Shown: piece after piece, positions 2,817 to 59,619 of the stretch
How the letters are laid out: each line of letters opens with the position of its first letter
Numbering within the stretch: the stretch's first letter is position 1
NCBI GenBank assembly: GCA_964452465.1
Contig: CAYVMD010000006.1
Location: 2,425-66,424, forward strand
Direction: 5' to 3'
DNA length: 64,000 bases
Origin: an uncultured bacterium
GTDB lineage: Bacteria > Armatimonadota > JACIXR01
Translations under genes and position numbers: made by a program
The notes under the pieces: model-generated
Told to the model about the DNA's origin: nothing
The model's database searches: none
What the model saw: only the letters and a program-made list of their open reading frames with translations

Positions 2817-2869
2817 AAACCTTTATCTAAAATACCCACATGTCCTTGAGTATTAAAAAGGCCTGTCTA

Positions 2870-24791: not shown

Positions 24792-24866
24792 TGGAGCCGA
24801 CGGTGGGATTCGAACCCACGACCTGGTGATTACGAATCACCCGCTCTTCCACTGAGCTACATCGGC
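24792..24866 (-). tRNA. tRNA-Thr (anticodon CGU)
   Basis: Minus-sense GCCGATGTAGCTCAGTGGAAGAGCGGGTGATTCGTAATCACCAGGTCGTGGGTTCGAATCCCACCGTCGGCTCCA. Cloverleaf with a GGTTCGAATCC T-loop, anticodon loop TTCGTAA, and an encoded CCA. Confidence 0.85.
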
Positions 24867-37800: not shown

Positions 37801-38289
37801 ATCGAGAGGCTCCTGCCCTATCTCTGCTGGAAGTACGGGGTGGAAGGCTACGAATTCTGGGGGCTCAATTGGTGGACATATAATCCCTATGAGAAGGGAT
37901 GGCATGCTTTCCTTCCCCATACCTTCACCGAGGGAGGGGAGGCTACGATGATAAGATATCCCAATGGCGATGGTTTCCTTTCCTACCCGCCGGTGGATAA
38001 GAATTACAAGGAGCCAGTGTCCACCATTCGCCTGGAGCAAGTAAGGGAGGGCATAGAGGATTACGAGTATCTCGTTCTTTTGGATAGGTTGGTGGCGGAG
38101 GCAAGAGGAAAGGGAATGGATGTCTCTCGGGCAAGCAGGATTTTGGAAAGGGCAAGGGCGCTCGTCTTCATTCCCAACAAGGGAGGCTTGAGATCCCTTT
38201 CCCTGCTCCCTCGTCCCTCGGAGGTTGCAGAAATACGAAGGGCAATGGGAGAGGAGATAGAGAGGCTCCTTAGAGAAAGAAAGGAATAG
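34816..38289 (+). CDS. Large secreted protein with two CBM4/9-like carbohydrate-binding modules and a C-terminal DUF4091-like glycoside-hydrolase-like domain
   Basis: Signal peptide. Two jelly-roll segments (GGLYNGGFEIG...WSAVE... and NLVKNPSFEEED...YWQGGFEME...). C-terminal YYVADEPHYWFP...IWGVGPHG resembles DUF4091. Confidence 0.5.
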   Translation: MMRKIFFVCVVLTALSFVWSQPAWHQLYLDGGGYWKGRIRLEVENPTSQDVKGETIRIKVGANPEELNLVGEEAKGLRVCDEEGRELLFDILSSAGGCKRSGKLTKGDMLLLPVEVKTGEKKGYFVYYGNEDAWGVPDFWRGGLYNGGFEIGKDSPEDWSAVETDAYHQVFWVKENPHSGRYCAKTVVRMGASPSWVKYHQTNIPIVEGRRYILRAWVKAKDVKGMAGWFIHVFGNKGWLINQVLNAGEGTYDWREITYEFVAPESATNATIGTVLYGTGTAWFDDVSLQPAEPMENLLRISIGGREEMRLREIRGGDRENRASFFQEIKVRNFSNSPKGGVLISLELNRLRRYIPSLKFRILDPETKKTCPYIKFEDILLFITSLPPKSEKVFLLYPDEKGEEMDLQQLITSKVNLVKNPSFEEEDENHLPAYWQGGFEMEKREGRAVIVSSLREGNVVLGIPSLDSRDPALGNKCARLEIPEGAPLRWVGWHQEIPANPNTTHLYLGFLKTENLKGEVVLYGHFHDKEGKLCQGAQYFQTAPALSGTRPWTLTYSLLQTPYDCASVELHLTVNAHGIVYHDGIFFAEVEKGIWGKAYAPPSKEMLNVWQVDPLIKVFQDDVPGPAPKEIRLYCAINERESLQLAFRSEKGLKGVRISVRKPMNKAGQTLPDVKVNLVGYVPIDVPSAYYSSPAQAPWYRLVPKGTPGSDGWAGYWPDPLLPNKPFDLQAQTTQPIWLTVQVPPNASPGEYKSLITIQGENAQISIPLTIKVWGFSLPKSPSLKVIFDFHSDAGLDLKSWYRFYAEHRISPNTIRPEPTIDYKDGQVSLNTSGFDEMAHYCLDDLGMSVVYLPGFFYMMGWGFSPKQMFGYEAFTPEFNLAFSQCYRAFLNHLKEKGWKDKFVYYVADEPHYWFPKVGENMEKMCDLIHSVSRDIPIYSSVWNYVGDWVGYLDIWGVGPHGSCPVDKMEELKRSGAKLWFTTDGHMCIDTPYLAIERLLPYLCWKYGVEGYEFWGLNWWTYNPYEKGWHAFLPHTFTEGGEATMIRYPNGDGFLSYPPVDKNYKEPVSTIRLEQVREGIEDYEYLVLLDRLVAEARGKGMDVSRASRILERARALVFIPNKGGLRSLSLLPRPSEVAEIRRAMGEEIERLLRERKE

Positions 38290-38315: not shown

Positions 38316-39380
38316 TTAGGGGAAAAGGGCGTTTACCCTTTCCCAAAGTAGATTTTCGTTCTTTATGCGGAAGGAGGAACGAAGGACAAGCAAGGGCAAT
38401 GGGGAGGTCCTACTACCCAAGAGCCTTCCCATCTTCACCCCGTCCTTAGGCGTCATCACCACCGCCTCACAGCCTTTTCCCTCAGCCTCTTTTAGAATTT
38501 CCTCTAAATCCTGTTCTTTATAAAGATAATGATCGGGATAGGAACGAAACACAACCTCCCCACTCAATTTTTCCAAGGTCCTCCTAAAGCCCTCGGGATT
38601 CCCTATCCCCGCTACCCCCATAACTTTTCTTCCCCATAAGTAATCTAAGCCTATCTCCTTCCCTTCTATTATGTCCTCTAACCGATCCGGCTCGTAATCC
38701 GCCTCCAATACCAGTGCTTTTTTGTTATATCGATATATCATCTCCTTTATCCCTTTCTTGTCCTTCGCTAAACCCGCATTGCTCAGGATTATCACATCCC
38801 CCCTCGCCAAGCCCTTCAGGCTTTCTCTTAAAGCCCCGCGAGGGAATAGCCTTCCATAGCCAAAGGGATTCAGGGCGTTTAACAACACGATCTCCAGATC
38901 CTTTTCCACCCGGAAGTATTGCAGGGCGTCATCGAGCACCACCACCGCCGCTCCTTCCTCCACCGCCTGCTCGATGGATTTTATTCGGTCCCTTCCTATC
39001 CACACGCTGATGCCCGGGAGGGAATTCGTTATGAGAAAAGCCTCATCCCCTATCTCTTCTATGCTCCTTCCCTCTGCTTTTCCTGCTTTTCCTCTTCCTC
39101 CATAGCCGGTGCAAATGACAGCCACCCTATATCCCTTCCCTTTGAGGGATCTCGCCAATTCGATGGTTAGAGGCGTCTTTCCCGTACCTCCTAAGGTTAT
39201 GTTCCCTACCCCGATCACTTTACAAGGAGGTCTTAGCTTCCTTCTTTCTTGAAGGGCTCGGAAGATGAGAAAGCCAAGGGCATAAAGCGGGGTCAATAGG
39301 CAAAGGAAAAATCTTAGAAGGGCTAAAAAGGTGCCTCTTTCCCCGCTGATCGCTCTTCTCCAGGTTTCTTCCCAACCCAT
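38316..39380 (-). CDS. lpxK: Tetraacyldisaccharide 4'-kinase
   Basis: N-terminal TM segment. P-loop VIGVGNITLGGTGKTP. ATG at 39380 lies 2 nt after the waaA stop. Confidence 0.85.
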   Translation of the reverse strand: MGWEETWRRAISGERGTFLALLRFFLCLLTPLYALGFLIFRALQERRKLRPPCKVIGVGNITLGGTGKTPLTIELARSLKGKGYRVAVICTGYGGRGKAGKAEGRSIEEIGDEAFLITNSLPGISVWIGRDRIKSIEQAVEEGAAVVVLDDALQYFRVEKDLEIVLLNALNPFGYGRLFPRGALRESLKGLARGDVIILSNAGLAKDKKGIKEMIYRYNKKALVLEADYEPDRLEDIIEGKEIGLDYLWGRKVMGVAGIGNPEGFRRTLEKLSGEVVFRSYPDHYLYKEQDLEEILKEAEGKGCEAVVMTPKDGVKMGRLLGSRTSPLPLLVLRSSFRIKNENLLWERVNALFP

Positions 39381-39382
39381 CT

Positions 39383-41284
39383 TCAAGTCCCTTTGCTCGC
39401 TAACTCCGCGATTGCCTGGGCATACGCTTTGGAAGCACCCTGCATAGTTTCTATCAACCTCTCCGCGCTCTTTGCTATCTCCTTTCTCAGAGAAGCTTCC
39501 CCCAGGAGCGCTTTCACCTTCTCGCTTAACTCTTTGCTATTCCTAACTTCTATACCAACCTCTGCCTGCTTCGCTAAATCCGTTATATCTCGGAAATTGT
39601 GCATATAAGGACCGAAGAGGACCGGCTTCCCCCAGGCTAAGGGTTCCAGGATATTGTGTCCTCCCTTGGGCACTAAACTTCCTCCCACGAATGCAACCGT
39701 GCACAATCCGTAGAGGGTGAACAGCTCCCCTACGGTATCTATGAGGATGACGGCGTTTTTATCCAGGGCCTCCAGAGGCAGTCTGCTTCTTTTAACATAG
39801 GTGAAGCCTCGCTTGGAAAGGAGGCTCTCCACTTCCTCCATTCTCTCGGGATGACGAGGCGCGAGGATCAGCCTTAAATGGGGGAAGGAAAGGCGAGCAT
39901 TCCAATAGGCATCGAGGACCATTTCTTCTTCTCCGGGGTGGGTGCTTCCGGCGACGAGGATTTCCTCGTCCTCCTCTATTTTAAGTAGGTTCTTTAGGTT
40001 TTCCAATTTCGAAAGGTCCTTGCTAAGGGCAACTTGGTCGAACTTACTGTTCCCCACCACTTTTACATTCCTGCCTCCGCTTTGGAACGCCCGCTTGGCG
40101 TCCCGTTCCGACTGCATAAAAAGGGTCATCTGTTCCAAAAGCGGGGCAAAGAAGAACTTGAGGGCGCGCATCTTCACCAAACTATCATCCGATATCCTAC
40201 CGTTTACCAAAAGCAAGGGGATGTTAAGGAGCCTCGCCCAGAAGATGAGGTTGGGCCAGACCTCGGTCTCCACCAGCGCTATCACCCGGGGCTTCAACCT
40301 TCTTAGAGCTATAAGGGGGCAGGGAAATATATCGAGGGGGAAATAGAAAAGTTTGGCGAGGTCGCGAAGATGCCTTTTTGCGGTTTCCATCCCCGTGGTG
40401 GTCGTTACGGAAAGGTAGATTTCTTTCTCCTCCACCAATCGCTTTAGGTTTTCCACTATTGGCTTGGCTGCCATGGTCTCCCCCACGGAAACGGCGTGCA
40501 CCCAGATGGCCCCTTCTCCCCTGGGAGCCAGCCCCATTTTCTCCTTCCATCCCCTCAATTTCTTCCCCCCAAACTGGCGGAGGAAAAACCAACCCAATAT
40601 GAAGGGCAAAAGAAGGAAGATGGCTATGTTGTAAAGAAGGATGGGGATAAGCAACCTCCAACGAGAGGGGCGCGGGTCTTCTATGAGGAGCTTCTTTGCT
40701 TTTTCCTCTTCCCTATCCAATGCCTGCTTCACCGAATTTAGATCTCCTTGGGGATAGAAAGGTTTTCCGAAGGAGACGATGATTTTGGAAAAGGGGAGGG
40801 GGAGAAGATGCCTATCCCAAGTGGGAAGCCTAAGGGCAGGGCTTATCGCTACTCCCACCGGTATGATGGGGGTATCCCTATCGGTGAGGAGGAGGATGCC
40901 CTTCTTGGGGATGCGAGGCGGACCGAGGGGACCGTCCGGCGTTATCCCCAGGATCTCCCCCTGGGCAAGGGCTTGCTTGGCTTGGCGGAAGGCGGAGATC
41001 CCGCCTCGCCTGCTCGAGCCCAGGATAACCTTGCAGCCCGAAAGGGTGAGGAATTTCCCCAGAAGCCTTCCATCGGCGGAAGGGGAAACTATGCAGAGCA
41101 GTTTCCTCTTCCTTAGCAGGAAAACGGGGATGGAGAAGAGGCTATGCCAAGAGGCAAGTATGCTTCTCCTTTTAATCCTTTCCATTCCCAGGATATTTAA
41201 TCGAGAGGTAGCTAGGACGAGGTGGAAATAAAGCCAGGCGATATAAGGGGCTAAGGATGCCAAGTATTTAAGAAACCTTCTCAT
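39383..41284 (-). CDS. waaA: DUF374 (lysophospholipid acyltransferase-like) domain fused to 3-deoxy-D-manno-octulosonic acid transferase
   Basis: A DUF374-like segment of about 230 aa precedes the WaaA glycosyltransferase (IWVHAVSVGETMAAKPIVENL, GT30 C-terminus). RBS GGGAAGAGG. Confidence 0.8.
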   Translation of the reverse strand: MRRFLKYLASLAPYIAWLYFHLVLATSRLNILGMERIKRRSILASWHSLFSIPVFLLRKRKLLCIVSPSADGRLLGKFLTLSGCKVILGSSRRGGISAFRQAKQALAQGEILGITPDGPLGPPRIPKKGILLLTDRDTPIIPVGVAISPALRLPTWDRHLLPLPFSKIIVSFGKPFYPQGDLNSVKQALDREEEKAKKLLIEDPRPSRWRLLIPILLYNIAIFLLLPFILGWFFLRQFGGKKLRGWKEKMGLAPRGEGAIWVHAVSVGETMAAKPIVENLKRLVEEKEIYLSVTTTTGMETAKRHLRDLAKLFYFPLDIFPCPLIALRRLKPRVIALVETEVWPNLIFWARLLNIPLLLVNGRISDDSLVKMRALKFFFAPLLEQMTLFMQSERDAKRAFQSGGRNVKVVGNSKFDQVALSKDLSKLENLKNLLKIEEDEEILVAGSTHPGEEEMVLDAYWNARLSFPHLRLILAPRHPERMEEVESLLSKRGFTYVKRSRLPLEALDKNAVILIDTVGELFTLYGLCTVAFVGGSLVPKGGHNILEPLAWGKPVLFGPYMHNFRDITDLAKQAEVGIEVRNSKELSEKVKALLGEASLRKEIAKSAERLIETMQGASKAYAQAIAELASKGT

Positions 41285-43016
41285 CCTCTTCCCTCATCTG
41301 AAGCTCATATAGCTTGGCGTAAAGCCCTCCCTTCTCCAACAACTCCTTATGCGTTCCCTCCTCCACTATCCTTCCCTTATCCAAGACCACAATCCTATCC
41401 GCAACCCTGGCGGTGGATAAGCGATGGGCGACGAGCACTATGGTTTGTTCTCCTCGAGATAGGTTGTTCAACAAGGCTTGCTCCGAAATGGAATCCAAAT
41501 TCGCTGTAGCTTCATCCAGTATCAGGATGGAGGGCTTTCTTAAGAGCGCCCTTGCTATCGCCAGCCTTTGTTTTTGCCCCGCTGAAAGCGTCACTCCCCT
41601 CTCTCCTATGTAACTATCCAACCCCTCGGGAAGGGAGGCGACGAACTCCCAAAGCCCAACCTTTTCCAAGGCAGATCTCATCTCCTCCTCGCTTACCTCG
41701 TTCGCATAGGAAAGGTTTTCCCTTATCGTGCCGGCAAATACCAAAGGTTCCTGAGAGACTATCGCTATCTGTTTTCGTAGAGAGGGGATCCTCACCTCTC
41801 TTATATCCCAATCGTCTATCCTTATCTCGCCCTCTTTAGGCTCGAAGAAACGGGGGATGAGGTCAACGAGGCTCGTCTTGCCTGCCCCCGAGGGACCGAC
41901 GATGGCTATCATTTCGCCCTTTTTAATCTCCAAGTTTATTCCCTCCAAAACCGCTGTCCCATTATAGGATAAGGAAACATTGCTGAACTTCAATTCCCTT
42001 TGGAAGGAAGGAAGCTCCACTACGCCTTCCTTTTCCTCTTGGATGGTTGGCTCCAAGAGCTCTAATAAACGAGAGGCTGCCCCCGCGCTCTGCTGTAGGT
42101 TCATTATAACTTCCCCCCAATTCCTCAGGTTTTGATAGAGCATTTGGAGCAGGATTATGAACTCCGTTAACTTCCCCAGATTAAAATTGCTACCCGCCTT
42201 TATTATTTGCCAACTGGCGAAGAGGATTATGAATACCACCCCAATCGCCCCAGCCAATTCTATCAAAGGGATGAGTAACGCTCGTAATCTGATCCCCCTC
42301 ATGATCGCCCCAAAGGTTTGGGAAAGGGTGGTGGAGAATCGCTTCCTTTCCAATTCCTCGGCACATAGCCCCTTGACCTCCTTAACGAAGGAAAGGAAAT
42401 GTTCCAATCGGTTATTGATATCCCCAAACCTTTGCTGGATCTCCACCTGTATCCGGCGCATTTTCTTCCCCGCTAAATCTATCACATATCCGAGCAGGGG
42501 GATGGCGGTCACGCTGAAGAGGGAAAGTTGCCAATTTAGCATGAGGAGTCTGACCATAAAGGCTATTACCAATATGGGAGTGACGAATATCCTTTCCAAT
42601 ACTGTTGGTAGGGTTTCCTCTATAACTCTTACATCCACTACTACCCGGGATATCAGGTCACCTGCGCGTCTACGATGGAAGAAGGGCAAGGGGAGAAAGA
42701 GGAGGCGGGAGAGGAGAAGTTCCCTGATCTCCATCCCTATCCTATGGGCAACCCATCCCAAAAAGTAGGAGGAACAATAAAAGAATAATCCTTTGAAGGT
42801 ATAAGCTGCTATCCCAAGGGCGCAGACGATGGCTATGGTGTGGAAATCCTTTCCCCCTATGCTGGAGATGGCCTCTCGGGCCAACCTTGCCACCAATACC
42901 CCTAACAACCCCGCCCCTGCTGAGCCGATTAACCCGAGGAGCGTCCTTTTAAGGTATTTCCTAACCCAGGATGCAAGCCAAGGAATTGGTTTCATATGCT
43001 CACATAATTTTACCAT
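41268..43016 (-). CDS. msbA: Lipid A export ABC transporter (permease plus ATPase)
   Basis: Six TM helices, Walker A GPSGAGKTS, signature LSAGQKQRLAIARALL. Its 3' end overlaps the waaA start. Confidence 0.85.
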   Translation of the reverse strand: MVKLCEHMKPIPWLASWVRKYLKRTLLGLIGSAGAGLLGVLVARLAREAISSIGGKDFHTIAIVCALGIAAYTFKGLFFYCSSYFLGWVAHRIGMEIRELLLSRLLFLPLPFFHRRRAGDLISRVVVDVRVIEETLPTVLERIFVTPILVIAFMVRLLMLNWQLSLFSVTAIPLLGYVIDLAGKKMRRIQVEIQQRFGDINNRLEHFLSFVKEVKGLCAEELERKRFSTTLSQTFGAIMRGIRLRALLIPLIELAGAIGVVFIILFASWQIIKAGSNFNLGKLTEFIILLQMLYQNLRNWGEVIMNLQQSAGAASRLLELLEPTIQEEKEGVVELPSFQRELKFSNVSLSYNGTAVLEGINLEIKKGEMIAIVGPSGAGKTSLVDLIPRFFEPKEGEIRIDDWDIREVRIPSLRKQIAIVSQEPLVFAGTIRENLSYANEVSEEEMRSALEKVGLWEFVASLPEGLDSYIGERGVTLSAGQKQRLAIARALLRKPSILILDEATANLDSISEQALLNNLSRGEQTIVLVAHRLSTARVADRIVVLDKGRIVEEGTHKELLEKGGLYAKLYELQMREEDEKVS

Positions 43017-47690: not shown

Positions 47691-48532
47691 AGATAAGCGA
47701 GGGCTACGAGAAAGCCCTCGCCTACGCGCTCAAGATCGGCTGCGAGTGCATCCAAACCCTCATTACAAGCCCTCTTACCTGGCATTTGAGGACTAATATC
47801 CCCGCCCTCCGGGAGTACATCGCCTCCCTTCGTTCCCACGATATCCAGCCCATCGCTATCCATGCCCCCTACCTCCTAAACCTCGCCTCACCAGAGGGGA
47901 CGATCTACGAAAAATCACTTCAAGCTCTCATGGATGAGTTTCATATCGCCCAGGAGGTGGAGGCGGATTTCCTCATCGTTCATGCGGGAAGCCATAGGGG
48001 GCAGAATGGTAAGGAGGGCGTGAAGAGGCTGATCTCCGCCCTGAAGGCTGTTGAACGCTCCTTCGCTTCCTCTCCTGAAAAATCTCCCATACTTTTAGTG
48101 GAGAACACGGCGGGGGGAGGAGGGGAAATAGGGGCTTCGTTGGAGGAGTTGGAGGAAATACTGAATCACATATCCTGGCAGGGGATCGGGATTTGCTTGG
48201 ATACCTGCCACCTCTGCGCCTATGGTTATGATCTAAGTTCTCCCCGCGGGGTGGAGGGGTTAGCCAAAGAGGCGAAGAAGAGGTTGGGGGATAGGCTTCA
48301 CTTAATCCACCTCAACGATTGCAAGGCGCCCTGCGGGAGCAAATACGACAGGCATGAGAATTTGGGCGAGGGAAGCATAGGGCTGGCAGGCTTCAGGGCG
48401 ATAATAAACCATCCCTTCTTTTCCCCCCTCCCAGCCATCATGGAAACCCCGGCCAGTTATCAGGATGACCTCCGCAACATCGCCCTTGCCAAGCGCCTTC
48501 GTGCTACTCCCCCTGGATCCTCCTCAAAGTGA
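47669..48532 (+). CDS. nfo: Endonuclease IV (AP endonuclease family 2)
   Basis: Xylose-isomerase-like TIM barrel. MRFGFQV start, then ILLVENTAGGGGEIG and DTCHLCAYGYD metal-binding motifs. Confidence 0.8.
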   Translation: MRFGFQVKISEGYEKALAYALKIGCECIQTLITSPLTWHLRTNIPALREYIASLRSHDIQPIAIHAPYLLNLASPEGTIYEKSLQALMDEFHIAQEVEADFLIVHAGSHRGQNGKEGVKRLISALKAVERSFASSPEKSPILLVENTAGGGGEIGASLEELEEILNHISWQGIGICLDTCHLCAYGYDLSSPRGVEGLAKEAKKRLGDRLHLIHLNDCKAPCGSKYDRHENLGEGSIGLAGFRAIINHPFFSPLPAIMETPASYQDDLRNIALAKRLRATPPGSSSK

Positions 48533-50462
48533 GCAGGGCGGAGCCAGGCGCCTTGTCTATCCTGAGGGTTATGCCTCTCGCCAATTCCCTGCCGGTCAGC
48601 GTTCTCCTTTCCCCCCGATCCTGATCGATAACCTCGAAGAGGGCTTTGGCGGGAAGTCCCTTTAGGTTCAACTTTATCTCCGATACAGGGCAAAGATGGC
48701 GCCTAAAGGCAAGCACCATTCCTTCCCCTAAATCCTCCCTGTAGAACTGATAGGCCATGAAGGCATCGTCGCTCGTGCTATAGGGGGTGAGGGGGTAGTA
48801 ATCGCCAAGGAAAAGTCCCCTAACCCTCCTGAACTCCTCTATCCTTCTTTTCGCCTCCTCCAAAGGGAAATCGGGAGCATAGATGTTCCAAGATACTACC
48901 ATTCCATTGTTCATTGAACTGCGGAAGACATAGGCTTCCGGGGAACCGCAACCTGTGCTCGTCGTGGGTAGGTAGTAGTTGATCCCGTAAGTGTGGCATT
49001 GATAACCGTTCGGCTCGAAATATTGATAGTCGGTGCGCCAGAGGGCAACGCTCCTGGAGATGGTTTCCAGATCTATTCGCCTACCTCCGCTGGCGCAGTT
49101 GTCGATTATTAGCCCGGGATGGCGCCTCAGTAGTTCGTCCCAAAAGGCGTAGAAGCCCTCTATATACCTTATCTCCGTTATTCCCTGCCTATCCTCGGGA
49201 TCGGCAGAGCGCCAGAAGGGCAGGGGGTCTATGTTGAAGTCGTGTCTGTAGACATTTATCCCCTCCCTTTCGATCATCTGAGAGATGTGATGGGTCAGCC
49301 ATCTCCGCGCCTCCTCATTGCCCAGGTTCAAAAGCCCATTGGGGTTCCCCGGCAATCTTAAAATCCAGTCCGGGTGTTCCCTATCTAGCCAAGTGCCCTG
49401 GAAGACCCGCTCTGGCTCGAACCAGAGGAGGAAGCCCTTCATCCCCATATCCTTGACCGCTTCGGAAACAGGGCGAAGCCCGCGAGGAAAACCATCCTTG
49501 CGAGGAAACCAGTTGCCCACCCCATTCGGCCACTTCCCCTCGAACCACCCCGCATCTATCCACCAATAATCGAAGTCGAGCTCCAATTCGCGGAAACGCT
49601 TGGCAAAGGCGATCTGGTTCTCCTCGTTTGCATCGTTGAACTCTATATCCGTGAGGGAAGGGTCGTAATAGCGCGGTGAGCCGGTGGCGGAGAAGGGGAG
49701 CTCCAAGGGCTTGGGAGCAATGTGGTCTATAATGAACCGGCGGAAGAGGTTCTGGCCTATAAAGAAATCCCTTCCCTTCCAGGAGAGGAGAAGAATGCGG
49801 GGAGAACGAATCTCCTCGCCCGGGTAAAGCTTGAGGTGGGTCAATTCCATGCCCGCTCGCACCTTAACGGAGGAGTTGGCATCCCCCTCGAAGGAAGCGC
49901 ACCACTGCCCCGACCAACCTATGGCGATGATCACCCCTCCCTTGCCCCGGAACTCTATGTGGAAGAAAGGGAGGGATGTGGTATGGGAAGATCGCCCACC
50001 CAAGGGAGCGATGCGGAGGGAAGTGCCTTGCTTTATTTCCTTCTCTAAAGGGGCGAAATCGTCCCTTTGGGCATTGCTCCCCTTATTGTGATGGAGGATG
50101 ACCCTTAGAGTTCCCGCTGGGGGGACGAAGACGGCGTCCAGCGCCTGGATGTTTTCTATTATGGGGGTGTCTTCCTTGCCCTCGTTCTTGAACCGTAGTA
50201 GCCACTCGATGGCGGGGAAATCCTCGTATTCGAGCGCTTCGCAGGTTACACGGAGGTGGGTTTGAGGGTCGAGGTAGGTGAAGACATGTTGGGTGCCTTT
50301 CCCCTTTATTGCCCTCTGCTGATGGGAGAATTTCCAATGGGGAAGAAGATCCTTGGAGGATCGGCCTTGATAGATGAAGGAGAAAGGGGGCGCGGTTTGG
50401 AAGTCCAGAGGGAGGTAAGCCATCACCGCCAGCCCAAACACGGGAAATCCCAATATGCACAT
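48504..50462 (-). CDS. Glycoside hydrolase family 36-like (alpha-galactosidase family) protein
   Basis: RBS AAAGGAGGGG. Resembles the GH36 N-terminal and catalytic regions (VYRHDFNIDPLPFW, WFEPERV). Cytoplasmic: no signal peptide. Confidence 0.5.
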   Translation of the reverse strand: MCILGFPVFGLAVMAYLPLDFQTAPPFSFIYQGRSSKDLLPHWKFSHQQRAIKGKGTQHVFTYLDPQTHLRVTCEALEYEDFPAIEWLLRFKNEGKEDTPIIENIQALDAVFVPPAGTLRVILHHNKGSNAQRDDFAPLEKEIKQGTSLRIAPLGGRSSHTTSLPFFHIEFRGKGGVIIAIGWSGQWCASFEGDANSSVKVRAGMELTHLKLYPGEEIRSPRILLLSWKGRDFFIGQNLFRRFIIDHIAPKPLELPFSATGSPRYYDPSLTDIEFNDANEENQIAFAKRFRELELDFDYWWIDAGWFEGKWPNGVGNWFPRKDGFPRGLRPVSEAVKDMGMKGFLLWFEPERVFQGTWLDREHPDWILRLPGNPNGLLNLGNEEARRWLTHHISQMIEREGINVYRHDFNIDPLPFWRSADPEDRQGITEIRYIEGFYAFWDELLRRHPGLIIDNCASGGRRIDLETISRSVALWRTDYQYFEPNGYQCHTYGINYYLPTTSTGCGSPEAYVFRSSMNNGMVVSWNIYAPDFPLEEAKRRIEEFRRVRGLFLGDYYPLTPYSTSDDAFMAYQFYREDLGEGMVLAFRRHLCPVSEIKLNLKGLPAKALFEVIDQDRGERRTLTGRELARGITLRIDKAPGSALLTLRRIQGE

Positions 50463-51635: not shown

Positions 51636-52227
51636 CCTTCACCTCCGATTCGTATTATACCTCTTCGAGATTCTTCCCGATAGATATTCTATTATTCTCT
51701 ATTATTCATCGATGATAAATGAACAAAGCCTTTCCGTATAGTTCGCCCTTTCCTTGAGCAATTCCCTCCCAAGATTTCCTAATAGGAAAATGGAACGAAG
51801 GACAGGGGACAAAAGGCGGGAATCCCCCAAGTCACCTTGGATATCTCCCTCTTCACCTTTCCTCGGTTACGCGGGATTCCCCATTGCCACCTCCATAGCC
51901 ATAACTGCGGGATGTCTTCTCCTTTGGGAGGGACGTGCTTTCTCATCTTCTTGGGGGTGGGCTATCTGGTCAAATTCCCCGAGGCGGATCGCCTCAAGGA
52001 AGCGTTGAGGTGATTAGAGGAAGCATTCAAGAAAGTCAAACCGACGAATTACTCAAACTGCGGTTGCGAGTGCCACTGGAATTATTGAAGTTCCCTCTTT
52101 CCTTATGAAGATAAAATCTCTTCGAGGTCAATTTACGGTTAATCATGCTCGTCAAATTTGAGGAAACACGGGATTTGACGCATTGGGGGAAAAACTTTAC
52201 CCTTTAGTGGAAAGGAGTGAGAAACGG

Positions 52228-52788
52228 ATGTCGTGGATTTGGGTTGCCGTTGTCCTGTTCGTTATCTTCATCCTGTGGCCTATATCCATCTACAATGGGC
52301 TGGTGCGAAGGAGGGTTAGGGCAGATAACGCTTGGAGGCAGATAGATGTCCAACTCAAAAGAAGACACGACCTTATACCCAACCTCGTAGAGGCGGTTAA
52401 AGGCTACATGAAATATGAGAGGGAAACCCTGGAGCGGGTTATAGAAGCAAGGGGGAAAGCGGTCTCCGCTTCCACCATAGAGGAGAGCGGTAGAGCGGAA
52501 GGAGAGCTAACCCGCGCTCTCCGCCAACTATTCGCCCTTTTCGAGCGTTACCCCGACCTTAAAGCGAACCAGAATGTTATGCAACTTCAGGAGGAGTTGA
52601 CGCACACGGAGAATAACATCGCCTTTTCCCGCCAATTTTATAACGATGTGGTGATGGATTACAATACCTCCATTCAGGTTTTCCCTAACTCCATCATCGC
52701 TTCCCTCTTTAATTTCCAGCCCAAGCCCTTTTACCGATTGGAGGTAGAGGAAGAAACATCTGCCCCCCGCGTGGACCTCGGCATTTAA
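52228..52788 (+). CDS. lemA: LemA family membrane protein
   Basis: RBS GGAGTG. N-terminal TM segment, then the LemA core YNGLVRRRVRADNAWRQIDVQLKRRHDLIPNLVE. Confidence 0.85.
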   Translation: MSWIWVAVVLFVIFILWPISIYNGLVRRRVRADNAWRQIDVQLKRRHDLIPNLVEAVKGYMKYERETLERVIEARGKAVSASTIEESGRAEGELTRALRQLFALFERYPDLKANQNVMQLQEELTHTENNIAFSRQFYNDVVMDYNTSIQVFPNSIIASLFNFQPKPFYRLEVEEETSAPRVDLGI

Positions 52789-52794
52789 CGGGTT

Positions 52795-53760
52795 ATGGGC
52801 ATCACCTTTTACAGCCTTGCCGAACAGAATAGGCGTAAGACCTTTCTTTTGATATCCGTCCTCACCTTGCTCCTTTGTTTCTTGGGCTTTCTCGTTGATG
52901 CCTTTTATCTCGATTTCCCCCACCATTTTCCCTATCCCATCTTCTCCCTCATCGCCTTCCTCGTTGCCCTCACCCAGGCTCTCATCGCCTATTATCAGGG
53001 GGACAGGATAGTGCTGTCCTCCCTTCGTGCCCGTCCAGCCAGCAGGGAGGTCCTCCAAGAGAGGATGCTTATAAATGTAGTGGAAGAGATGAGCATAGCC
53101 TCGGGTCTTCCTATACCAAAGGTTTACATAATAGATAGCGAGATGCCCAATGCCTGTGCCACGGGGAGAACTCCCTCCAACGCCTCCATCTGCGTTACCT
53201 CGGGGTTATTGGACATGATGGATAGGGAGGAGCTCCAGGGGGTGATAGGGCACGAGATCGCCCATATAAGAAATAGGGATATATTGGTTATGACCGTTAC
53301 CGCTGTTCTTTTGGGAACGATCGTTATCCTGGCTGACCTCGTGCGTCGATTTCCTCGTGCTGATAGGGAGAACTATGGAGTAGGCAGAGGGAAGGGTAGG
53401 GGATCTCCTATTCTCCTCGTTTTCCTCATAATCTTCGCCATACTCGCCCCCCTCATCGCTCGACTCATTTTCCTTGCCGTTTCCCGGAGCAGGGAATACA
53501 TTGCCGATGCCCATGGTGCTGAATTCACCCGCAATCCTCTTGGCTTAGCCCAGGCATTGGAAAAAATAGAGCGTTATCAGGCGAGCAGGATCCTCAAGGG
53601 AGTTCCTTCTATTTTAGCGAATCCTGCCCTTGCCCATCTTTTCATCGCCGATCCCCTAAACAGAGGGATAAACGAGAGGGAGGGGTTTTGGGCGACCCTC
53701 TGGAGCACTCATCCTCCCATACTCCGACGCATCCAACTTTTGAAAGAAATGGCGGTTTGA
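52795..53760 (+). CDS. htpX: Zinc metalloprotease HtpX (peptidase M48)
   Basis: Four TM helices and the HEIAHIRNRD zinc-binding motif. The lemA-htpX pairing is a common conserved neighbourhood. Confidence 0.85.
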   Translation: MGITFYSLAEQNRRKTFLLISVLTLLLCFLGFLVDAFYLDFPHHFPYPIFSLIAFLVALTQALIAYYQGDRIVLSSLRARPASREVLQERMLINVVEEMSIASGLPIPKVYIIDSEMPNACATGRTPSNASICVTSGLLDMMDREELQGVIGHEIAHIRNRDILVMTVTAVLLGTIVILADLVRRFPRADRENYGVGRGKGRGSPILLVFLIIFAILAPLIARLIFLAVSRSREYIADAHGAEFTRNPLGLAQALEKIERYQASRILKGVPSILANPALAHLFIADPLNRGINEREGFWATLWSTHPPILRRIQLLKEMAV

Positions 53761-53771
53761 GGACTTTTTAT

Positions 53772-53799
53772 TTGACGAATTCGCATATGTTGTTAGAAT
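53772..53799 (+). promoter_or_regulatory. Putative promoter of the ABC fusion gene (TTGACG-16-TGtTAGAAT)
   Basis: -35 TTGACG at 53772-53777 and an extended -10-like TGTTAGAAT at 53791-53799. Confidence 0.4.
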
Positions 53800-53839
53800 T
53801 ACTAACTTGCTAATAAGAAAGCCGGAGGTGAAAGAAAGG

Positions 53840-56581
53840 ATGGTGAATTTAGAAGAACCACCATTACATCTCCTAAGCGAAACGAAAGAGCGCTTGGGGG
53901 AGGAAGAAATTAAGTTGCTTCTTGCTTCGGACCTGGGGGAAGAAGATGGAACAACCGATTATCTTGCCATTACTAAATCTCGACTTGCTGTAATCTCCGC
54001 TTCTCCCGATGGCAGTAGAACGAAGTATATATTCGATCTCAAAGATATAGAGGATGTAAGATCGACCCCCCTCGTCGGGTGCGGAGCTTTGGAGGCGAGG
54101 ATCAATGGGGAATGGGTGAGGCTCCTTCGCTATTCCAATGTTCTTGCTCCTCAATTTGCCCTTGCCTCCAAAAACATAATGAACTTGAAGGAAGGGCGGG
54201 AGGAATTAGAGGAGGATAAAGAAATAAGGAGATGCCCCAAATGCAATATGCCCCTTCCTTCGGGTTCCCAGGTTTGTCCCAGATGTCTTCCCAAGGGTAA
54301 AGTTCTTCGGCGTCTCCTTTCCTATGCCAAACCGTATAAGTGGGTCCTTGCTCTTGCAGGAGCCCTCGTTCTAATAGACACCGCTCTTAACCTGGTTCCC
54401 CTTTATATCAATCGATACCTTGTGGATAACATCCTCATCCCCCGCAAGGAAGGGTGGGTGCTGGGGATCATGATCCTCGCTTGGCTACTCATAAGGGTGG
54501 TGAGCACGGGGATAGTGATTTCGAGGGGAAGGTTGACCGCAAAGACGGGGCAAAGGATGATGTATGACCTCCGCACTGCCCTTTATCGAACCCTCCAGCG
54601 GCTCTCGGTCACTTTCTATGATAAATACCCCACGGGTTCCCTTATCTCCCGTATCACCCAGGACATAAGCTCCCTCCAGGGGTTCCTTGCCCACGATATA
54701 CATTTCTTTGCTGCTAACATCCTTCTCCTCATAGGTATAAGTGCGGTCCTCATCCAGATGAATTGGGAACTCGCTCTCCTTACCCTTCTCCCAGCCCCCC
54801 TTATCATCTTCTTCGTCTCCTCCGTGTGGCGTTATATCTATCTCAATTATCGCAGGCTTTGGCATAGATGGAGCAGGTTCGTGGCTATCCTCAGTGATTC
54901 CCTCTCGGGAGTGCGAGTAATAAAGGCATTCGCCCAGGAGGATAAGGAGGCGCAAAGGTTCGACAAAAGGGCAACCGCACTTTGGGAGGCAGGTGTAAGG
55001 GCAGAGTTGCTCAACGCTACTTTCGCTCCCGTCCTTTCCTTGCTCATAGGCTCTACCTCCTTCATTATTTGGTACTTCGGAGGTAAGGAAGTTGTGGGTG
55101 GGGCGATGACTACGGGGACCCTTTTTGCTTTTCTCTCCGCCCTTGGCATGCTCTTTGGTCCCATCCAGGTAGTCCTTCAGATGAGCACGAGCATCGCCAA
55201 TGCTCTTGCTGCCTCCGAGAGGGTCTTCGAGATAATGGATGCGGAGACGGAGGAGGTTGAGGAGGGCGGACCGAAGATCTCGATGCCTTATGTCTACGGC
55301 AATGTGGAGTTCCGGAATGTTACCTTCGGCTACGATAAGTACCAACCCATTCTCCACAATATCAATCTGAAAGTAAGGGCGGGAGAAATGGTGGGGATAG
55401 TGGGGCCGAGCGGAGCGGGGAAGACCACCATCATCAACCTCATCTGTAGATTTTATCTTCCCACCGAAGGGGAAATCCTGATCGACGGTGTGAACATCAA
55501 GGATATAAACATCGAGGATTTAAGGAAACAAATTGGATTGGTTCCCCAGGAGCCCTTCCTCTTCCACAGCACCATAGCGGATAACATCGCCTATGCTAAG
55601 GAAGGCGCCAACAAAAAGGAAATCATAAGGTGTGCTAAAGCGGCTAACGCTCATGATTTTATCCTTTTCTACCCCGATGGCTACGATACCATGGTGGGGG
55701 AAAGGGGGACCCGCCTCTCAGGTGGTCAAAGGCAAAGGGTTGCAATAGCCCGTGCCCTTCTCCATAATCCCCGCATCCTCATCCTCGATGAGGCGACTTC
55801 CTCCGTGGACACGGAAGCGGAGAAGCAGATCCAAGAAGCGCTTACGAGATTGGTGAGGGGGAGGACCACTTTTGCCATTGCCCACCGCTTATCCACCTTG
55901 AGGATAGCTGACCGTATAGTCGTCCTCAAGAACGGGAGAATTGTGGAGGAAGGAAGAAGTGAGGAGCTTCTTTCCTATGATAGTGAATACAAGAGGCTCG
56001 TGGAGCTCCAAGCGGGTCCCATCACCTCTCCGGATCAGTGGACGATTAAAAGGGAGGAAGTGGAGGAAATGGACATCGGTCCCCTTTTCCTTCCTCCTTC
56101 CTCGGTTAGATTCGAAAGAACGGAGGGAAATGTGCTGAAGCTCTGGGTAGAGGGAGTAGGTGAATTTCGCAAGGTCTCCCTCCGCAGGCTCTTCCCTCTT
56201 ACCGACCCCGATCATTATATAAGCGTCCTTAACACTGACTATCGGGAAGTGGATACCCATCAGGAGATAGGCGTTATAGTGGATCTCTCCCTTCTTCCCG
56301 AGGATTCTCGACGCTTGGTAGAGCAGGAACTCCAACGCACCTACTTCATAGCCCAGGTTAAGAGGATAATTTCCCTTAAGGAGCTCTACGGTTTCACCGA
56401 ATGGGTTGTGGAAACCGACAAAGGGCAAAGGAAGTTCCTCACATGGGGGCTCCACCACAGCGTAATAGATATGGGGGGAAGAAGGTTGATAATAGTCGAT
56501 GTGGATGACATTTACTACGAGATAAAGGACTGGGCGCTCCTCGATCCTAAAAGCATTGCTTTCCTGAGGAGAATCCTCTAA
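53840..56581 (+). CDS. ABC exporter (transmembrane domain plus ATPase) fused to an N-terminal PH-like plus zinc-ribbon module and a C-terminal DUF1854-like domain
   Basis: ATG with RBS GGAGGTG (the ORF-track TTG at 53807 is less likely). Residues 1-140: PH-like segment, then CPKCNMPLPSGSQVCPRC. Six TM helices, Walker A GPSGAGKTT, signature LSGGQRQRVAIARALL. A further C-terminal region of about 180 aa resembles DUF1854. Confidence 0.8.
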   Translation: MVNLEEPPLHLLSETKERLGEEEIKLLLASDLGEEDGTTDYLAITKSRLAVISASPDGSRTKYIFDLKDIEDVRSTPLVGCGALEARINGEWVRLLRYSNVLAPQFALASKNIMNLKEGREELEEDKEIRRCPKCNMPLPSGSQVCPRCLPKGKVLRRLLSYAKPYKWVLALAGALVLIDTALNLVPLYINRYLVDNILIPRKEGWVLGIMILAWLLIRVVSTGIVISRGRLTAKTGQRMMYDLRTALYRTLQRLSVTFYDKYPTGSLISRITQDISSLQGFLAHDIHFFAANILLLIGISAVLIQMNWELALLTLLPAPLIIFFVSSVWRYIYLNYRRLWHRWSRFVAILSDSLSGVRVIKAFAQEDKEAQRFDKRATALWEAGVRAELLNATFAPVLSLLIGSTSFIIWYFGGKEVVGGAMTTGTLFAFLSALGMLFGPIQVVLQMSTSIANALAASERVFEIMDAETEEVEEGGPKISMPYVYGNVEFRNVTFGYDKYQPILHNINLKVRAGEMVGIVGPSGAGKTTIINLICRFYLPTEGEILIDGVNIKDINIEDLRKQIGLVPQEPFLFHSTIADNIAYAKEGANKKEIIRCAKAANAHDFILFYPDGYDTMVGERGTRLSGGQRQRVAIARALLHNPRILILDEATSSVDTEAEKQIQEALTRLVRGRTTFAIAHRLSTLRIADRIVVLKNGRIVEEGRSEELLSYDSEYKRLVELQAGPITSPDQWTIKREEVEEMDIGPLFLPPSSVRFERTEGNVLKLWVEGVGEFRKVSLRRLFPLTDPDHYISVLNTDYREVDTHQEIGVIVDLSLLPEDSRRLVEQELQRTYFIAQVKRIISLKELYGFTEWVVETDKGQRKFLTWGLHHSVIDMGGRRLIIVDVDDIYYEIKDWALLDPKSIAFLRRIL

Positions 56582-56591
56582 AATGGATTAA

Positions 56592-57251
56592 ATGCCCCCA
56601 GATGCAACCCAGCGAGGATTATTCATCGCCATAGAAGGAGGGGAGGGCGTTGGTAAATCCACTCAAGCCCGCCTCCTTTATGAACATCTGAGGCAACGTT
56701 TCCCAACCGTCCTCACCAAGGAGCCCGCAGGCACTAAACTGGGCGAGAGGATAAAAGATATCCTCTACGAGCCCTCCTTATATCCTCTTCACCCCCTCGC
56801 TGAACTTTTCCTCTTCTTATCCGCTCGAGCCCAACATATTCAAGAGGTGATAAAACCTGCCCTCTCGGAAGGGAGGATCGTGATATCCGATAGATTCGCC
56901 CTTTCCTCCCTCGCTTATCAAGGCTTTGGGAGGGGTGTTCCCCTCGAGGTAATAGAGGAACTAAACGCCTTGGCTTGTGAGGGCATCTCCCCCGATCTCG
57001 TTATTTATATAGACCTTCCTCCCGAAGAAGGCGTAAAACGCCATCCACCCAACACCTTTCATACTGAAGACCTCCTCTTCCATAGAAAGGTAAGGGAAGG
57101 CTTCCTCCACTATGCTCGCCTTTGCCCCCAAACGATAAAAGTGGTTAGAGGGGAAAGGTCCATAGAGGAGATACACGAGGAGATAAAGGGTTTTGTGGAG
57201 GACTTGATAAGGAGGTGGAAAGATGAAGCTCCTCATAACTGTGGTCCATAA
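56592..57251 (+). CDS. tmk: Thymidylate kinase
   Basis: FIAIEGGEGVGKSTQ P-loop, a DRF/DRY-type motif, and a lid region. Confidence 0.9.
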   Translation: MPPDATQRGLFIAIEGGEGVGKSTQARLLYEHLRQRFPTVLTKEPAGTKLGERIKDILYEPSLYPLHPLAELFLFLSARAQHIQEVIKPALSEGRIVISDRFALSSLAYQGFGRGVPLEVIEELNALACEGISPDLVIYIDLPPEEGVKRHPPNTFHTEDLLFHRKVREGFLHYARLCPQTIKVVRGERSIEEIHEEIKGFVEDLIRRWKDEAPHNCGP

Positions 57252-57555
57252 CAGGGATAAGAACGCGCTTTCTTCCGCCCTTCTATCCGCTGGTTACCGT
57301 TTCACGGAGGTAGCCTCTACGGGTGGGCTCCTTAGGGAAGGAAACACGACTTTCTTAATCGGAGTGGAGGAGGAAGACCTGCAAAATGTCCTCTCCATAG
57401 TGGAGAAGAACTGTAAGACGAGGGAGCAATTCATCACCTCTCGTCCCCTCACCATAAGCGATCCTTCTGCTTGGACCCTGCCTATCCCCGTGAAGATTCA
57501 GGTGGGAGGAGCGGTGGTCTTCGTCATAGATGTAGAATCCTTCCACAGGTTCTAA
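57223..57555 (+). CDS. darA: PII-like c-di-AMP receptor DarA/YaaQ (DUF970)-like protein
   Basis: 110 aa, MKLLITVVHNRDKNALSSALLSAGYRFTEVASTGGLLREGNTTFLIGVEEE. Sits between tmk and holB, as yaaQ does in Firmicutes. Confidence 0.6.
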   Translation: MKLLITVVHNRDKNALSSALLSAGYRFTEVASTGGLLREGNTTFLIGVEEEDLQNVLSIVEKNCKTREQFITSRPLTISDPSAWTLPIPVKIQVGGAVVFVIDVESFHRF

Positions 57556-57556
57556 C

Positions 57557-58588
57557 ATGTCCTTTAGGGACATAATAGGACAGGAACAGGTCATAGAGAT
57601 TCTCAAATCCTATGCTAAAGGAGGGAAGATCCCCCACGCCTATCTCTTCGTTGGTCCCAAGGGAGTTGGGAAGACCACTTGCGCCTTAAACTTCGCCAAA
57701 TTGCTCAATTGTTCCCATGTCGCGCCTGATATGGAACCCTGTGATTCTTGTTCTTCCTGTGTTGCTATTGATGAAGGTTATCATCCCGACCTCTATTTCC
57801 TTTCTCCATCCGAGGAGGGAAGGGAAATAGGTATAGATGAGGTTAGGAATTGGCGTCAATCGGCCCAGATGTCCTCAGCTTGGGGGAGGTGGAAGATATT
57901 CATAGTGGAATCCGCCGAGCTTTTAACCCCTGAAGCAGAGGATGCCCTCCTTAAGATCCTGGAGGAACCTCCCCCCAACTCCCTCTTCATCCTCCTCTCC
58001 ACTTCTCTAAACGATGTCGCCCCCACCATCGCCTCTCGGTGCCACCTCCTGCGTTTTAAACCGGTAAAAATAGAGGAGGTGGCTCAGTTTCTGGAGAGGA
58101 GGTTCCCTTCCCTTTCTGCTCCCCAAGTCCTTGCTAACCTTTCGGAAGGACGCGTTGGGCTTGCCATCAGGCTCGCCGAGGATCAGCAGGTCTTTCATTC
58201 CACGCGGAACACCCTCTTTTCCCTTTTCCTAAATCTTCCCACCCATCCCTTCTACGCTTTGCGCGCTACCCAAAGGTTTCTCTCCCTCCCCGCCCCCTAT
58301 CAAGAGGAAAAGGAGAAAGCGCAGTTTCTCCTTCTCCTTTCCTCTACGATCTTCCGAGATCTTCTTTCGCTTTACCTAACTGGAGACCCCTCTTTCCTCA
58401 TCAATGTAGATAAGGAAGAGGTTCTCCTTCAGCATTATCAACGCTATTCCCTTTCCTATCTCCTCTTCGCCCTGAACACCCTCCAGAGGACTTACTACCT
58501 CCTCTCTCCTCATCTCACCACCAACCTGCGCCTCGCTCTGGAGGTTATGTTCCTGGACCTAATAGAGGGGAAGGAAAAGTACTCCTAA
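57557..58588 (+). CDS. holB: DNA polymerase III subunit delta'
   Basis: AAA+ motifs AYLFVGPKGVGKTT and a zinc module CSHVAPDMEPCDSCSSC. Lies downstream of tmk. Confidence 0.85.
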   Translation: MSFRDIIGQEQVIEILKSYAKGGKIPHAYLFVGPKGVGKTTCALNFAKLLNCSHVAPDMEPCDSCSSCVAIDEGYHPDLYFLSPSEEGREIGIDEVRNWRQSAQMSSAWGRWKIFIVESAELLTPEAEDALLKILEEPPPNSLFILLSTSLNDVAPTIASRCHLLRFKPVKIEEVAQFLERRFPSLSAPQVLANLSEGRVGLAIRLAEDQQVFHSTRNTLFSLFLNLPTHPFYALRATQRFLSLPAPYQEEKEKAQFLLLLSSTIFRDLLSLYLTGDPSFLINVDKEEVLLQHYQRYSLSYLLFALNTLQRTYYLLSPHLTTNLRLALEVMFLDLIEGKEKYS

Positions 58589-59619
58589 AGTTCCACCTCC
58601 TTATGTTTGCATGCCGATTCGTAGATGCCGTTTAAGATTTTCTGGATCTTTATCGCTTCCTCTATGTTTGGTATCGGCTCCTTGTCCTCTAAGATGCATT
58701 CGACGAAGTGATTTATCTCCTCGTAGAAGGCATCAACTCGAGGGAGGCGGGGCACTATATCCACGGGTTGCCCTCCCATGTCGGTGAACAGCCTGAGGGG
58801 GGACCATTCCGCTCCTCCCTTAGTGCCTTGGATGGCAGCTCCTAAGCGATCGCTTTCAATATGGGAGGCCCAGCTGACCTGCAGCAATATGGAAGCGCCG
58901 TTCTGGAACCTTATGAAAGCGTTAGCCAGGTCCTCCACATTGAAAACCCCTCCCGGCTCGGGTATGCCCCATCCTCCCACACCTTCACCGTAGGGACCGA
59001 ACTTGGCGTAGGTCTCGGCGCTTATGCTCTTCACCTCGGGATAGCCCATGATATAAAGTAGGAGATCAAGGATGTGAACCCCTATATCAATGACCGGTCC
59101 ACCGCCAGATCTCTCCAATTGGGTAAACCATCCTCCCATGCCTGGGATGCCCTTGCGCCTCTGCCACAATCCTATGGCGGAGTAGATTTCGCCGAAGAAT
59201 CCCTGGGTCGCCAATTCCTTGAGGTATCTTCCTTCGGCGCTGAACCTCTGCACGAGGGCGGTCATGTATTTCTTCCCCGTTTTGAGCACCGCTTCCTTCA
59301 TCTTCTCCACTTCTTGAACATTCCTGGCTGGGGGTTTCTCGCAGAGGACATGCTTCCCTGCCTCCAGGGCGGCGACGGTCACCGGCATATGGAGATCGTT
59401 GGGAGTGCAGACGGATACCGCGTCTAATTCCTCCATCTCCAGCATATCCTTGTAATCGGTGAAGGTGTGGGGCACCTCGTATTCCTTGGCTAAACGCTTC
59501 AGGAGATCCTCGCGCACATCGCAGAGGGCTAATACCTCCACCTTGGGGTGCTTCTTGTAAGCGTCAAGGTGAACTCGTCCTATGCCTAAGCCGACTATAC
59601 CGACTCTTACTTTATCCAT
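58585..59619 (-). CDS. Gfo/Idh/MocA family NAD(P)-dependent oxidoreductase
   Basis: Rossmann N-terminus VRVGIVGLGIGRVHLDAY, an EKP motif, and the family's C-terminal alpha/beta domain. Confidence 0.85.
   Translation of the reverse strand: MDKVRVGIVGLGIGRVHLDAYKKHPKVEVLALCDVREDLLKRLAKEYEVPHTFTDYKDMLEMEELDAVSVCTPNDLHMPVTVAALEAGKHVLCEKPPARNVQEVEKMKEAVLKTGKKYMTALVQRFSAEGRYLKELATQGFFGEIYSAIGLWQRRKGIPGMGGWFTQLERSGGGPVIDIGVHILDLLLYIMGYPEVKSISAETYAKFGPYGEGVGGWGIPEPGGVFNVEDLANAFIRFQNGASILLQVSWASHIESDRLGAAIQGTKGGAEWSPLRLFTDMGGQPVDIVPRLPRVDAFYEEINHFVECILEDKEPIPNIEEAIKIQKILNGIYESACKHKEVEL

Follow-up and report, generated by a model that had tools for sequence, protein, structure and literature searches.

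The closest described systems are found in the beta-proteobacteria Cupriavidus basilensis 4G11 and Acidovorax sp. 3H11, in which a protein of the family DUF1854 (PF08909) is paired with an ATP-binding cassette (ABC) transporter. DUF1854 was found to be cofit with the ABC transporter and with cphA/cphA′ in Acidovorax and Cupriavidus; pleiotropic stress phenotypes were also recorded, and DUF1854–ABC fusions were already noted "in a few genomes" (Price et al., bioRxiv 10.1101/072470). A fusion of this kind has also been noted by the Pfam curators; literature searches with DUF1854 and PF08909 returned no paper beyond that of Price et al. The two families are covered by an equivalog pair of NCBIfam models named for the beta-proteobacterial members, NF052233 ("cyanophycin metabolism-associated ABC transporter") and NF052234 ("cyanophycin metabolism-associated DUF1854 family protein"). 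The subject of the present analysis is a gene in which both partners are encoded as one chain, located on a 64 kb stretch of DNA from an uncultured bacterium assigned to Armatimonadota (contig CAYVMD010000006.1; the whole stretch is referred to below as the window). Its product is probably a half-size, presumably homodimeric type-I ABC exporter that arose by fusion of the two genes of a module consisting of a PH/zinc-ribbon ABC protein and DUF1854, and the terminal domains of which would recruit cargo or couple it to transport. The same two families, the DUF1854 partner and the PH/zinc-ribbon region (contained in the NF052233 profile) are thus shared with the Cupriavidus and Acidovorax pair; here, however, the parts are joined in one chain, the host is Armatimonadota-like, the scores lie below the curated cut-offs, and no cphA is found nearby.

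The gene and the parts of its product were delimited as follows (residue numbers refer to the product):

53840–56581, plus strand: coding sequence (913 aa plus stop codon) of the single-chain exporter with bacterial PH (bPH)-like, zinc-ribbon, transmembrane, nucleotide-binding and DUF1854 parts
53900–54193, plus strand: predicted cytoplasmic PH-like (bacterial PH, bPH_3-like) domain, residues ~21–118, with a short helix (residues 9–19) before it
54233–54286, plus strand: predicted C4 zinc ribbon CPKC-N10-CPRC, residues 132–149, directly before the elbow helix and the first transmembrane helix (TM1)
54350–55162, plus strand: type-I ABC exporter transmembrane domain (TMD) with six transmembrane helices, residues 171–441 (Pfam ABC_membrane PF00664, E 4.8e-42)
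55352–56011, plus strand: nucleotide-binding domain (NBD) with all catalytic motifs, residues 505–724 (Pfam ABC_tran, motifs, and alignment to the unfused homologue P0007)
56012–56083, plus strand: fusion linker, residues 725–748 (from the alignment with both separate proteins encoded at L008)
56084–56578, plus strand: DUF1854 module (PF08909), residues 749–913, equivalent to a whole stand-alone DUF1854 protein

An earlier reading of the sequence without database searches (the sequence-only reading) had divided the product into a PH-like segment with a zinc ribbon, a six-helix exporter domain, a complete ATPase and a DUF1854-like region. All four calls proved correct, and the parts follow one another in the order bPH-like domain, C4 zinc ribbon, six TM helices, catalytically complete NBD, linker and DUF1854. 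The length of 914 aa given in that reading included the stop codon; the product has 913 residues.

The core is that of a type-I (ABCB-like) half-transporter: a six-helix ABC_membrane TMD, in which six hydrophobic segments were counted, is followed in the same chain by an NBD matched by ABC_tran (PF00005) at residues 505–654 (E 6.4e-38). All ATPase motifs are intact, namely Walker A (522–529), Q-loop (568–571), LSGGQ (626–630), Walker B (ILILDE, 646–651, with the catalytic Glu), D-loop (654–657) and H-loop (681–683). On comparison with solved structures, TMD and NBD were matched with E values of 1e-96 to 1e-175 over residues ~154–750. This core is held in common with MsbA, Sav1866 and ABCB1-type exporters, whereas the terminal modules are not covered by their solved chains; in the PDB sequence comparison, none of the solved ABC transporter chains extended over the N-terminal 150 or the C-terminal 165 residues.

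The C-terminal assignment is firm. Pfam DUF1854 matched residues 776–911 with E 9e-32 and 110.1 bits (gathering threshold 26.8), and residues 749–913 align with residues 13–171 of the separate DUF1854 protein encoded at L008 (P and L numbers denote homologous proteins and genome loci, respectively). The same alignment resolves the linker into the former C-terminal tail of the ABC protein and the former N-terminal tail of the DUF1854 protein. Because the region from residue 749 to 913 matches a stand-alone DUF1854 protein and the ABC part extends to about residue 724, the chain is explained as a head-to-tail fusion of a two-gene module. In the AlphaFold2 (AF2) model of the DUF1854 module (pLDDT 91), two beta-rich halves are predicted, each closed by a helix. 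A Foldseek search of this model against the PDB returned nothing significant, a PDB sequence search with the segment gave no convincing match, and a profile–profile comparison with the N-terminal PH domain revealed no relationship. Since no convincing solved relative was obtained, DUF1854 is regarded as structurally uncharacterised and its fold class as tentative.

The same architecture was sought in relatives, as the sequence-only reading had proposed, in a collection of 5.8 billion proteins. It was present in all six nearest proteins (P0001–P0006; 68–96 % identity, 913–930 aa, PF00664 + PF00005 + PF08909), the 70 %-identical one of which (P0004) carries the NCBI name "DUF1854 domain-containing protein". 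The linker sequence is conserved among the close fused homologues. Contigs of 58.7 kb, from an independent Logan assembly, and of 73.5 kb, from NCBI, likewise encode the exact window protein, and the fused gene occurs in three GTDB species genomes; a search with an alignment of five sequences returned seven genome loci, all in metagenome-assembled genomes (MAGs). A chimera of two genes, named beforehand as the finding that would overturn the fusion, was looked for in these data, and the fusion held: the frame is continuous in the homologues and in the independent assembly.

From the seventh-ranked homologue on, the proteins are about 740 aa long, share about 50 % identity with the window protein and cover its first 77–79 %; they retain the N-terminal domain and the ABC core and lack DUF1854. 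Three of these unfused relatives (P0007 at L008, P0051 at L017 and P0110 at L018) are 47–52 % identical over residues 5–724, N-terminal domain included. Each is followed immediately downstream by a separate DUF1854 gene (171–187 aa), with a 4 nt overlap in two of the three cases and 185 nt apart in the third; two genes at these loci thus correspond to one gene here. The order ABC then DUF1854 is likewise found at L013 and L015, and the reversed order, with DUF1854 upstream of ABC, at L006/L007 and L012. That DUF1854 is as a rule a small protein in its own right, encoded beside an ABC exporter, had been stated in the sequence-only reading and was borne out by the related loci, and also by the cluster representatives described next.

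An exhaustive DUF1854 profile search was performed over 1.84 billion cluster representatives and gave 1930 proteins at E ≤ 1e-3. Among the best 150 of these 1930, about 143 are stand-alone proteins (127–307 aa) and seven (~5 %) are joined to an ABC NBD: P0002 (from the clade of the window protein), P0139, P0221, P0252 and the fragments P0156, P0191 and P0202. In its ABC core, the window protein is 56–57 % identical to the unfused P0008 and P0009 and 44–49 % identical to the fused P0139, P0221 and P0252, each of which is in turn closer to unfused relatives (46–54 %) than to the window protein. As each fused protein is closest to unfused ones in its ABC core, at least four independent fusions seem to have occurred, to judge from pairwise identities. 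The window protein is accordingly an independently fused member of a known, functionally uncharacterised family, with an architecture that is rare but on record.

The N-terminal region was assigned at the level of the fold. In the AF2 model of residues 1–158 (pLDDT 90), a short helix is followed by seven beta-strands and a long C-terminal helix, the topology of PH domains; the modelled seven-stranded beta-sandwich with its C-terminal helix cap and structural similarity to PH domains would place it in the PH-like superfamily. By sequence, bPH_3 (PF14470) scored 13.2 bits (E 0.13) in the window copy, below the cut-off of 23, and matched nine of 36 family members (best E 7.5e-6). The PH-like call thus stands for the modelled fold, and the sequence match is sub-threshold. 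The zinc ribbon that follows (CPKCNMPLPSGSQVCPRC, residues 132–149) is matched weakly by Pfam in the window protein; Zn_Ribbon_1 and DZR match 32–35 of the 36 members. In an alignment of these 36 diverse sequences, D31, G80, C132, C135, C146 and C149 are invariant, so that two conserved CxxC knuckles are present and metal binding is predicted. PDB sequence searches with each terminal segment returned only chance zinc-knuckle matches. The PH/zinc-ribbon module occurs in more than 100 homologues and lies inside the NF052233 profile; it is the standard N-terminus of the whole ABC family. The fusion of modules at both ends had been called unusual: this applies to the C-terminal DUF1854 fusion, given its rarity in the profile search, and fails for the N-terminal module. 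Two variations of this region were observed among the relatives. In the fused P0221 (896 aa), the PH-like domain is kept and the four zinc-ribbon cysteines are lost, and in the Fimbriimonadales-type proteins P0107, P0111, P0118 and P0119 an insertion of about 35 residues is placed between strands of the PH-like domain.

The following mechanism is proposed. As the modules stand before TM1 and after the NBD of a six-TM exporter, both are expected to be cytoplasmic. About 18 residues separate the end of the zinc ribbon from TM1; this would position the PH/zinc-ribbon region next to the elbow helix, at the surface of the inner leaflet. The fusion imposes a covalent 1:1 stoichiometry of DUF1854 and NBD; DUF1854 may thus act as a 1:1 accessory subunit of the ATPase, docked on or near the NBD dimer. 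Before a substrate synthesised in the cytoplasm is exported through the inner membrane, the terminal domains would bring it to the transporter or recognise it, or link its presence to the hydrolysis of ATP. The suggestion of a gated or substrate-sensing transporter in the sequence-only reading is plausible.

Terminal modules with such functions are known. In Wzt, the C-terminal carbohydrate-binding domain of the O-antigen ABC ATPase recognises the cytoplasmic polymer for export; an extra beta-rich domain, predicted in the case of DUF1854, follows the exporter NBD in both, and Wzt may serve as a functional analogy. The N-terminal C39-like domain of HlyB offers a further analogy for a terminal module. 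DdE and DdF, which are PH-domain proteins, are required for the ABC-mediated export of the leaderless enterocin DD14 (PMC8657885). By analogy, bacterial PH-like domains would act together with an ABC exporter on a cytoplasmic product in both systems; DdE and DdF differ in that the PH domains are carried by membrane proteins of their own, an ABC transporter of another type is used, and neither a zinc ribbon nor DUF1854 is involved.

Two points weigh against cargo recruitment by a fixed ABC–DUF1854 partnership. The relatives P0045 (Chthonomonadetes) and P0107 (Fimbriimonadales) are encoded without an adjacent DUF1854 gene, which shows that the two genes need not be partnered in cis. Furthermore, a purely regulatory role of the terminal domains, for example trans-inhibition, fits the data equally well.

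A more far-reaching proposal is that PH/zinc-ribbon ABC plus DUF1854 constitutes a distinct, widespread exporter class, in which DUF1854 would have a previously unseen double beta-barrel fold and dock on the NBD as a subunit for cargo recognition or gating, and the PH/zinc-ribbon region would be a membrane-proximal sensor of cargo or lipid. This is put forward tentatively, as something we judge doubtful rather than likely. The module is widely spread: clustering at 50 % identity gives about 1,900 DUF1854 representatives, and members occur in Armatimonadota, Poribacteria, Planctomycetota, Latescibacterota, Limnochordia and Proteobacteria. If the proposal were true, the fused single-chain versions would be an ideal handle on structure and cargo.

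Specific export of cyanophycin or a cyanophycin-like amino-acid polymer is suggested by the family models, and by the cofitness with cphA/cphA′ in Acidovorax and Cupriavidus. NF052233 was the best NCBIfam model for residues 21–730 and NF052234 that for the C-terminus; the scores of 608 and 70.2 bits, however, fall short of the curated cut-offs of 880 and 150, and every tested non-proteobacterial homologue is likewise below the NF052233 cut-off (530–688 bits). An association with cphA was found neither in the window nor in the flanks of nine related loci: no cyanophycin synthetase was present among the open reading frames (ORFs) of at least 600 aa in the 64 kb window, or among the called genes within 7–10 kb (less at contig ends) of the nine loci. 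In addition, no process for the export of cyanophycin was known according to a review-level statement of 2023 (PMC9974463). Cyanophycin export is therefore considered improbable. The family reaches far beyond genomes with an adjacent cyanophycin synthetase, and its "cyanophycin-associated" label is not transferable to such members; judged by its model scores, the window protein should not carry it.

A role as flippase of lipids or lipid-linked glycans (MsbA-like or associated with the Wzx/Wzy pathway), with the PH-like domain binding inner-leaflet head groups, was weighed against the neighbouring genes. The MsbA and MsbA-related models rank second-best in NCBIfam (472 and 453 bits), and PH folds commonly bind lipids; TIGR02203, however, scores 471.6 bits against a cut-off of 602. 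Elsewhere in the window, the following genes were identified:

38316–43016, minus strand: lipid A cluster msbA-like/kdtA/lpxK
41268–43016, minus strand: MsbA-like ABC exporter (TIGR02203, 456 bits, below cut-off)
39383–41284, minus strand: Kdo transferase fused to an N-terminal DUF374 domain
38316–39386, minus strand: LpxK

From this cluster the organism is judged to be a diderm, and the separate ABC gene within the cluster is the better candidate for the lipid A flippase; the role of MsbA is thereby disfavoured for the fused protein. The only recurring neighbour in the family is a Wzy_C (O-antigen-ligase-like) membrane protein (L006, 6759–9182; L012, 1872–4652; L003, 5921–7339). It is encoded just upstream of the DUF1854–ABC pair in L006 and L012, with C-terminal TPR repeats in both, and nearby in L003, and may be taken as a weak hint of an envelope-related or envelope-glycan cargo; no Wzy_C gene lies beside the window gene or those of its closest fused relatives. 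Taken together, a flippase is given little credence.

A general multidrug or stress efflux pump, in which the terminal domains are pure regulators that gate the ATPase by a cytoplasmic ligand, would find its model in MalK, MetN and ModC with their regulatory C-terminal domains. It would account for the ABCB-like core (P-glycoprotein is matched with 587 bits, and Sav1866, TmrAB-like proteins and BmrA are strongly matched as well), for a genomic context that varies across relatives and includes no conserved biosynthetic neighbour at the window locus, and for the pleiotropic stress phenotypes (Price et al., bioRxiv 10.1101/072470). The known multidrug half-transporters, however, are devoid of PH/zinc-ribbon and DUF1854 modules, and the strict conservation of the PH/zinc-ribbon region across phyla suggests a specific shared function. 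To our knowledge, there is no ligand or regulatory precedent for DUF1854, which also counts against this explanation; it is held to be quite unlikely.

Finally, although the 4 nt overlap of the genes in unfused relatives means that a single insertion or deletion could merge them, the notion that the long ORF is an artefact, produced from the ABC and DUF1854 genes by a sequencing or assembly frameshift or a lost stop codon, is effectively refuted and left with next to no probability, since the same continuous frame recurs in six homologues, which come from different samples and assemblies, and in three GTDB genomes, the identical protein was recovered in the independent Logan assembly, and the linker is conserved.

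The preferred assignment, a fused exporter with cargo-recruiting or -coupling terminal domains, takes the ATG at 53840 as its start; the ORF is closed by TAA at 56579–56581. An alternative TTG start at 53807, 11 codons 5′ of the ATG, is improbable, given that MVNLEEPPL opens all six close homologues, a GGAGGTG motif is located at 53824–53830, and an independent gene call also gave 913 aa. The upstream signals are the following:

53824–53830, plus strand: Shine–Dalgarno-like GGAGGTG, 9 nt before the ATG (sequence read directly)
53772–53799, plus strand: sigma-70-like promoter candidate TTGACG–16 nt–TAGAAT with TG upstream (consensus match only)

With ten of 12 matches, the promoter candidate has the joint top score in 52000–58800, together with one site on the minus strand, and is the only one of the top-scoring sites with the upstream TG. 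The sequence-only reading had assigned the gene its own promoter; a candidate is thus at hand, as far as a consensus match can indicate one.

Downstream, tmk follows the ABC gene, as had been stated; it starts after a gap of 10 nt and belongs to this group:

56592–58588, plus strand: tmk, cyclic-di-AMP receptor gene (DarA-like, PF06153) and holB

The tmk and receptor genes overlap by 29 nt, and the arrangement tmk–receptor–holB is typical of Firmicutes. As no terminator-like site was found between the ABC gene and the tmk cluster, co-transcription is possible. The upstream neighbours of the ABC gene encode LemA and an M48 peptidase. When LemA, M48, tmk, DarA and HolB were compared with nine homologous loci by tblastn, the only match was one to M48, located 7 kb off in L003, and the comparison yielded no operon partner. 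The genes tmk, the receptor gene and holB lack conservation beside the homologues and are not regarded as functional partners.

Some further observations were made on the window and on relatives. The M48 (HtpX-like) peptidase gene (52795–53760) lies directly upstream of the ABC gene; the M48 homologue of L003 (2343–3212, in a Chthonomonadetes MAG) is 43 % identical, lies 7 kb upstream of an unfused ABC gene and is probably a coincidence. At L019, thyX is found directly upstream of the ABC gene of P0107, and DUF1854 is not adjacent. The GyrB of the window is 69 % identical to Armatimonadota and Fimbriimonadales sequences. A 743 aa ORF (11628–13859, minus strand), for which Pfam gave nothing at E ≤ 1e-5, is situated amid many glycoside-hydrolase (GH) genes, including GH123-like (34816–38289), GH42-like (7552–10545), DUF5696/GH129-like (2840–5158) and melibiase-like (48504–50462). 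The sole RNA gene detected in the 64 kb window is a tRNA-Thr(CGT) (24792–24866, minus strand). Proteins of 1180–1270 aa (P0011, P0012, P0084, P0090, P0092, P0097, P0098, P0106 and P0112–P0114, some from Streptomyces) possess an ABC exporter core 35–40 % identical to that of the window protein, which in all of them but P0113 is joined to a Zeta_toxin-like P-loop kinase domain (PF06414). This represents a different accessory-domain solution within the same ABC clade.

General knowledge of ABC transport is left unchanged by these results. For the family, its N-terminus, uncharacterised before, can be described as a PH-like domain, on the strength of the model, with a predicted zinc ribbon. The lineage is probably related to thermophiles, and a single-chain version from it would lend itself well to cryo-EM. 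The gene fusion provides "Rosetta stone" evidence that the two proteins operate as one machine, and, coming from a phylum remote from the beta-proteobacteria that yielded the fitness data, independently corroborates the view that DUF1854 is a physical subunit of one specific ABC exporter.

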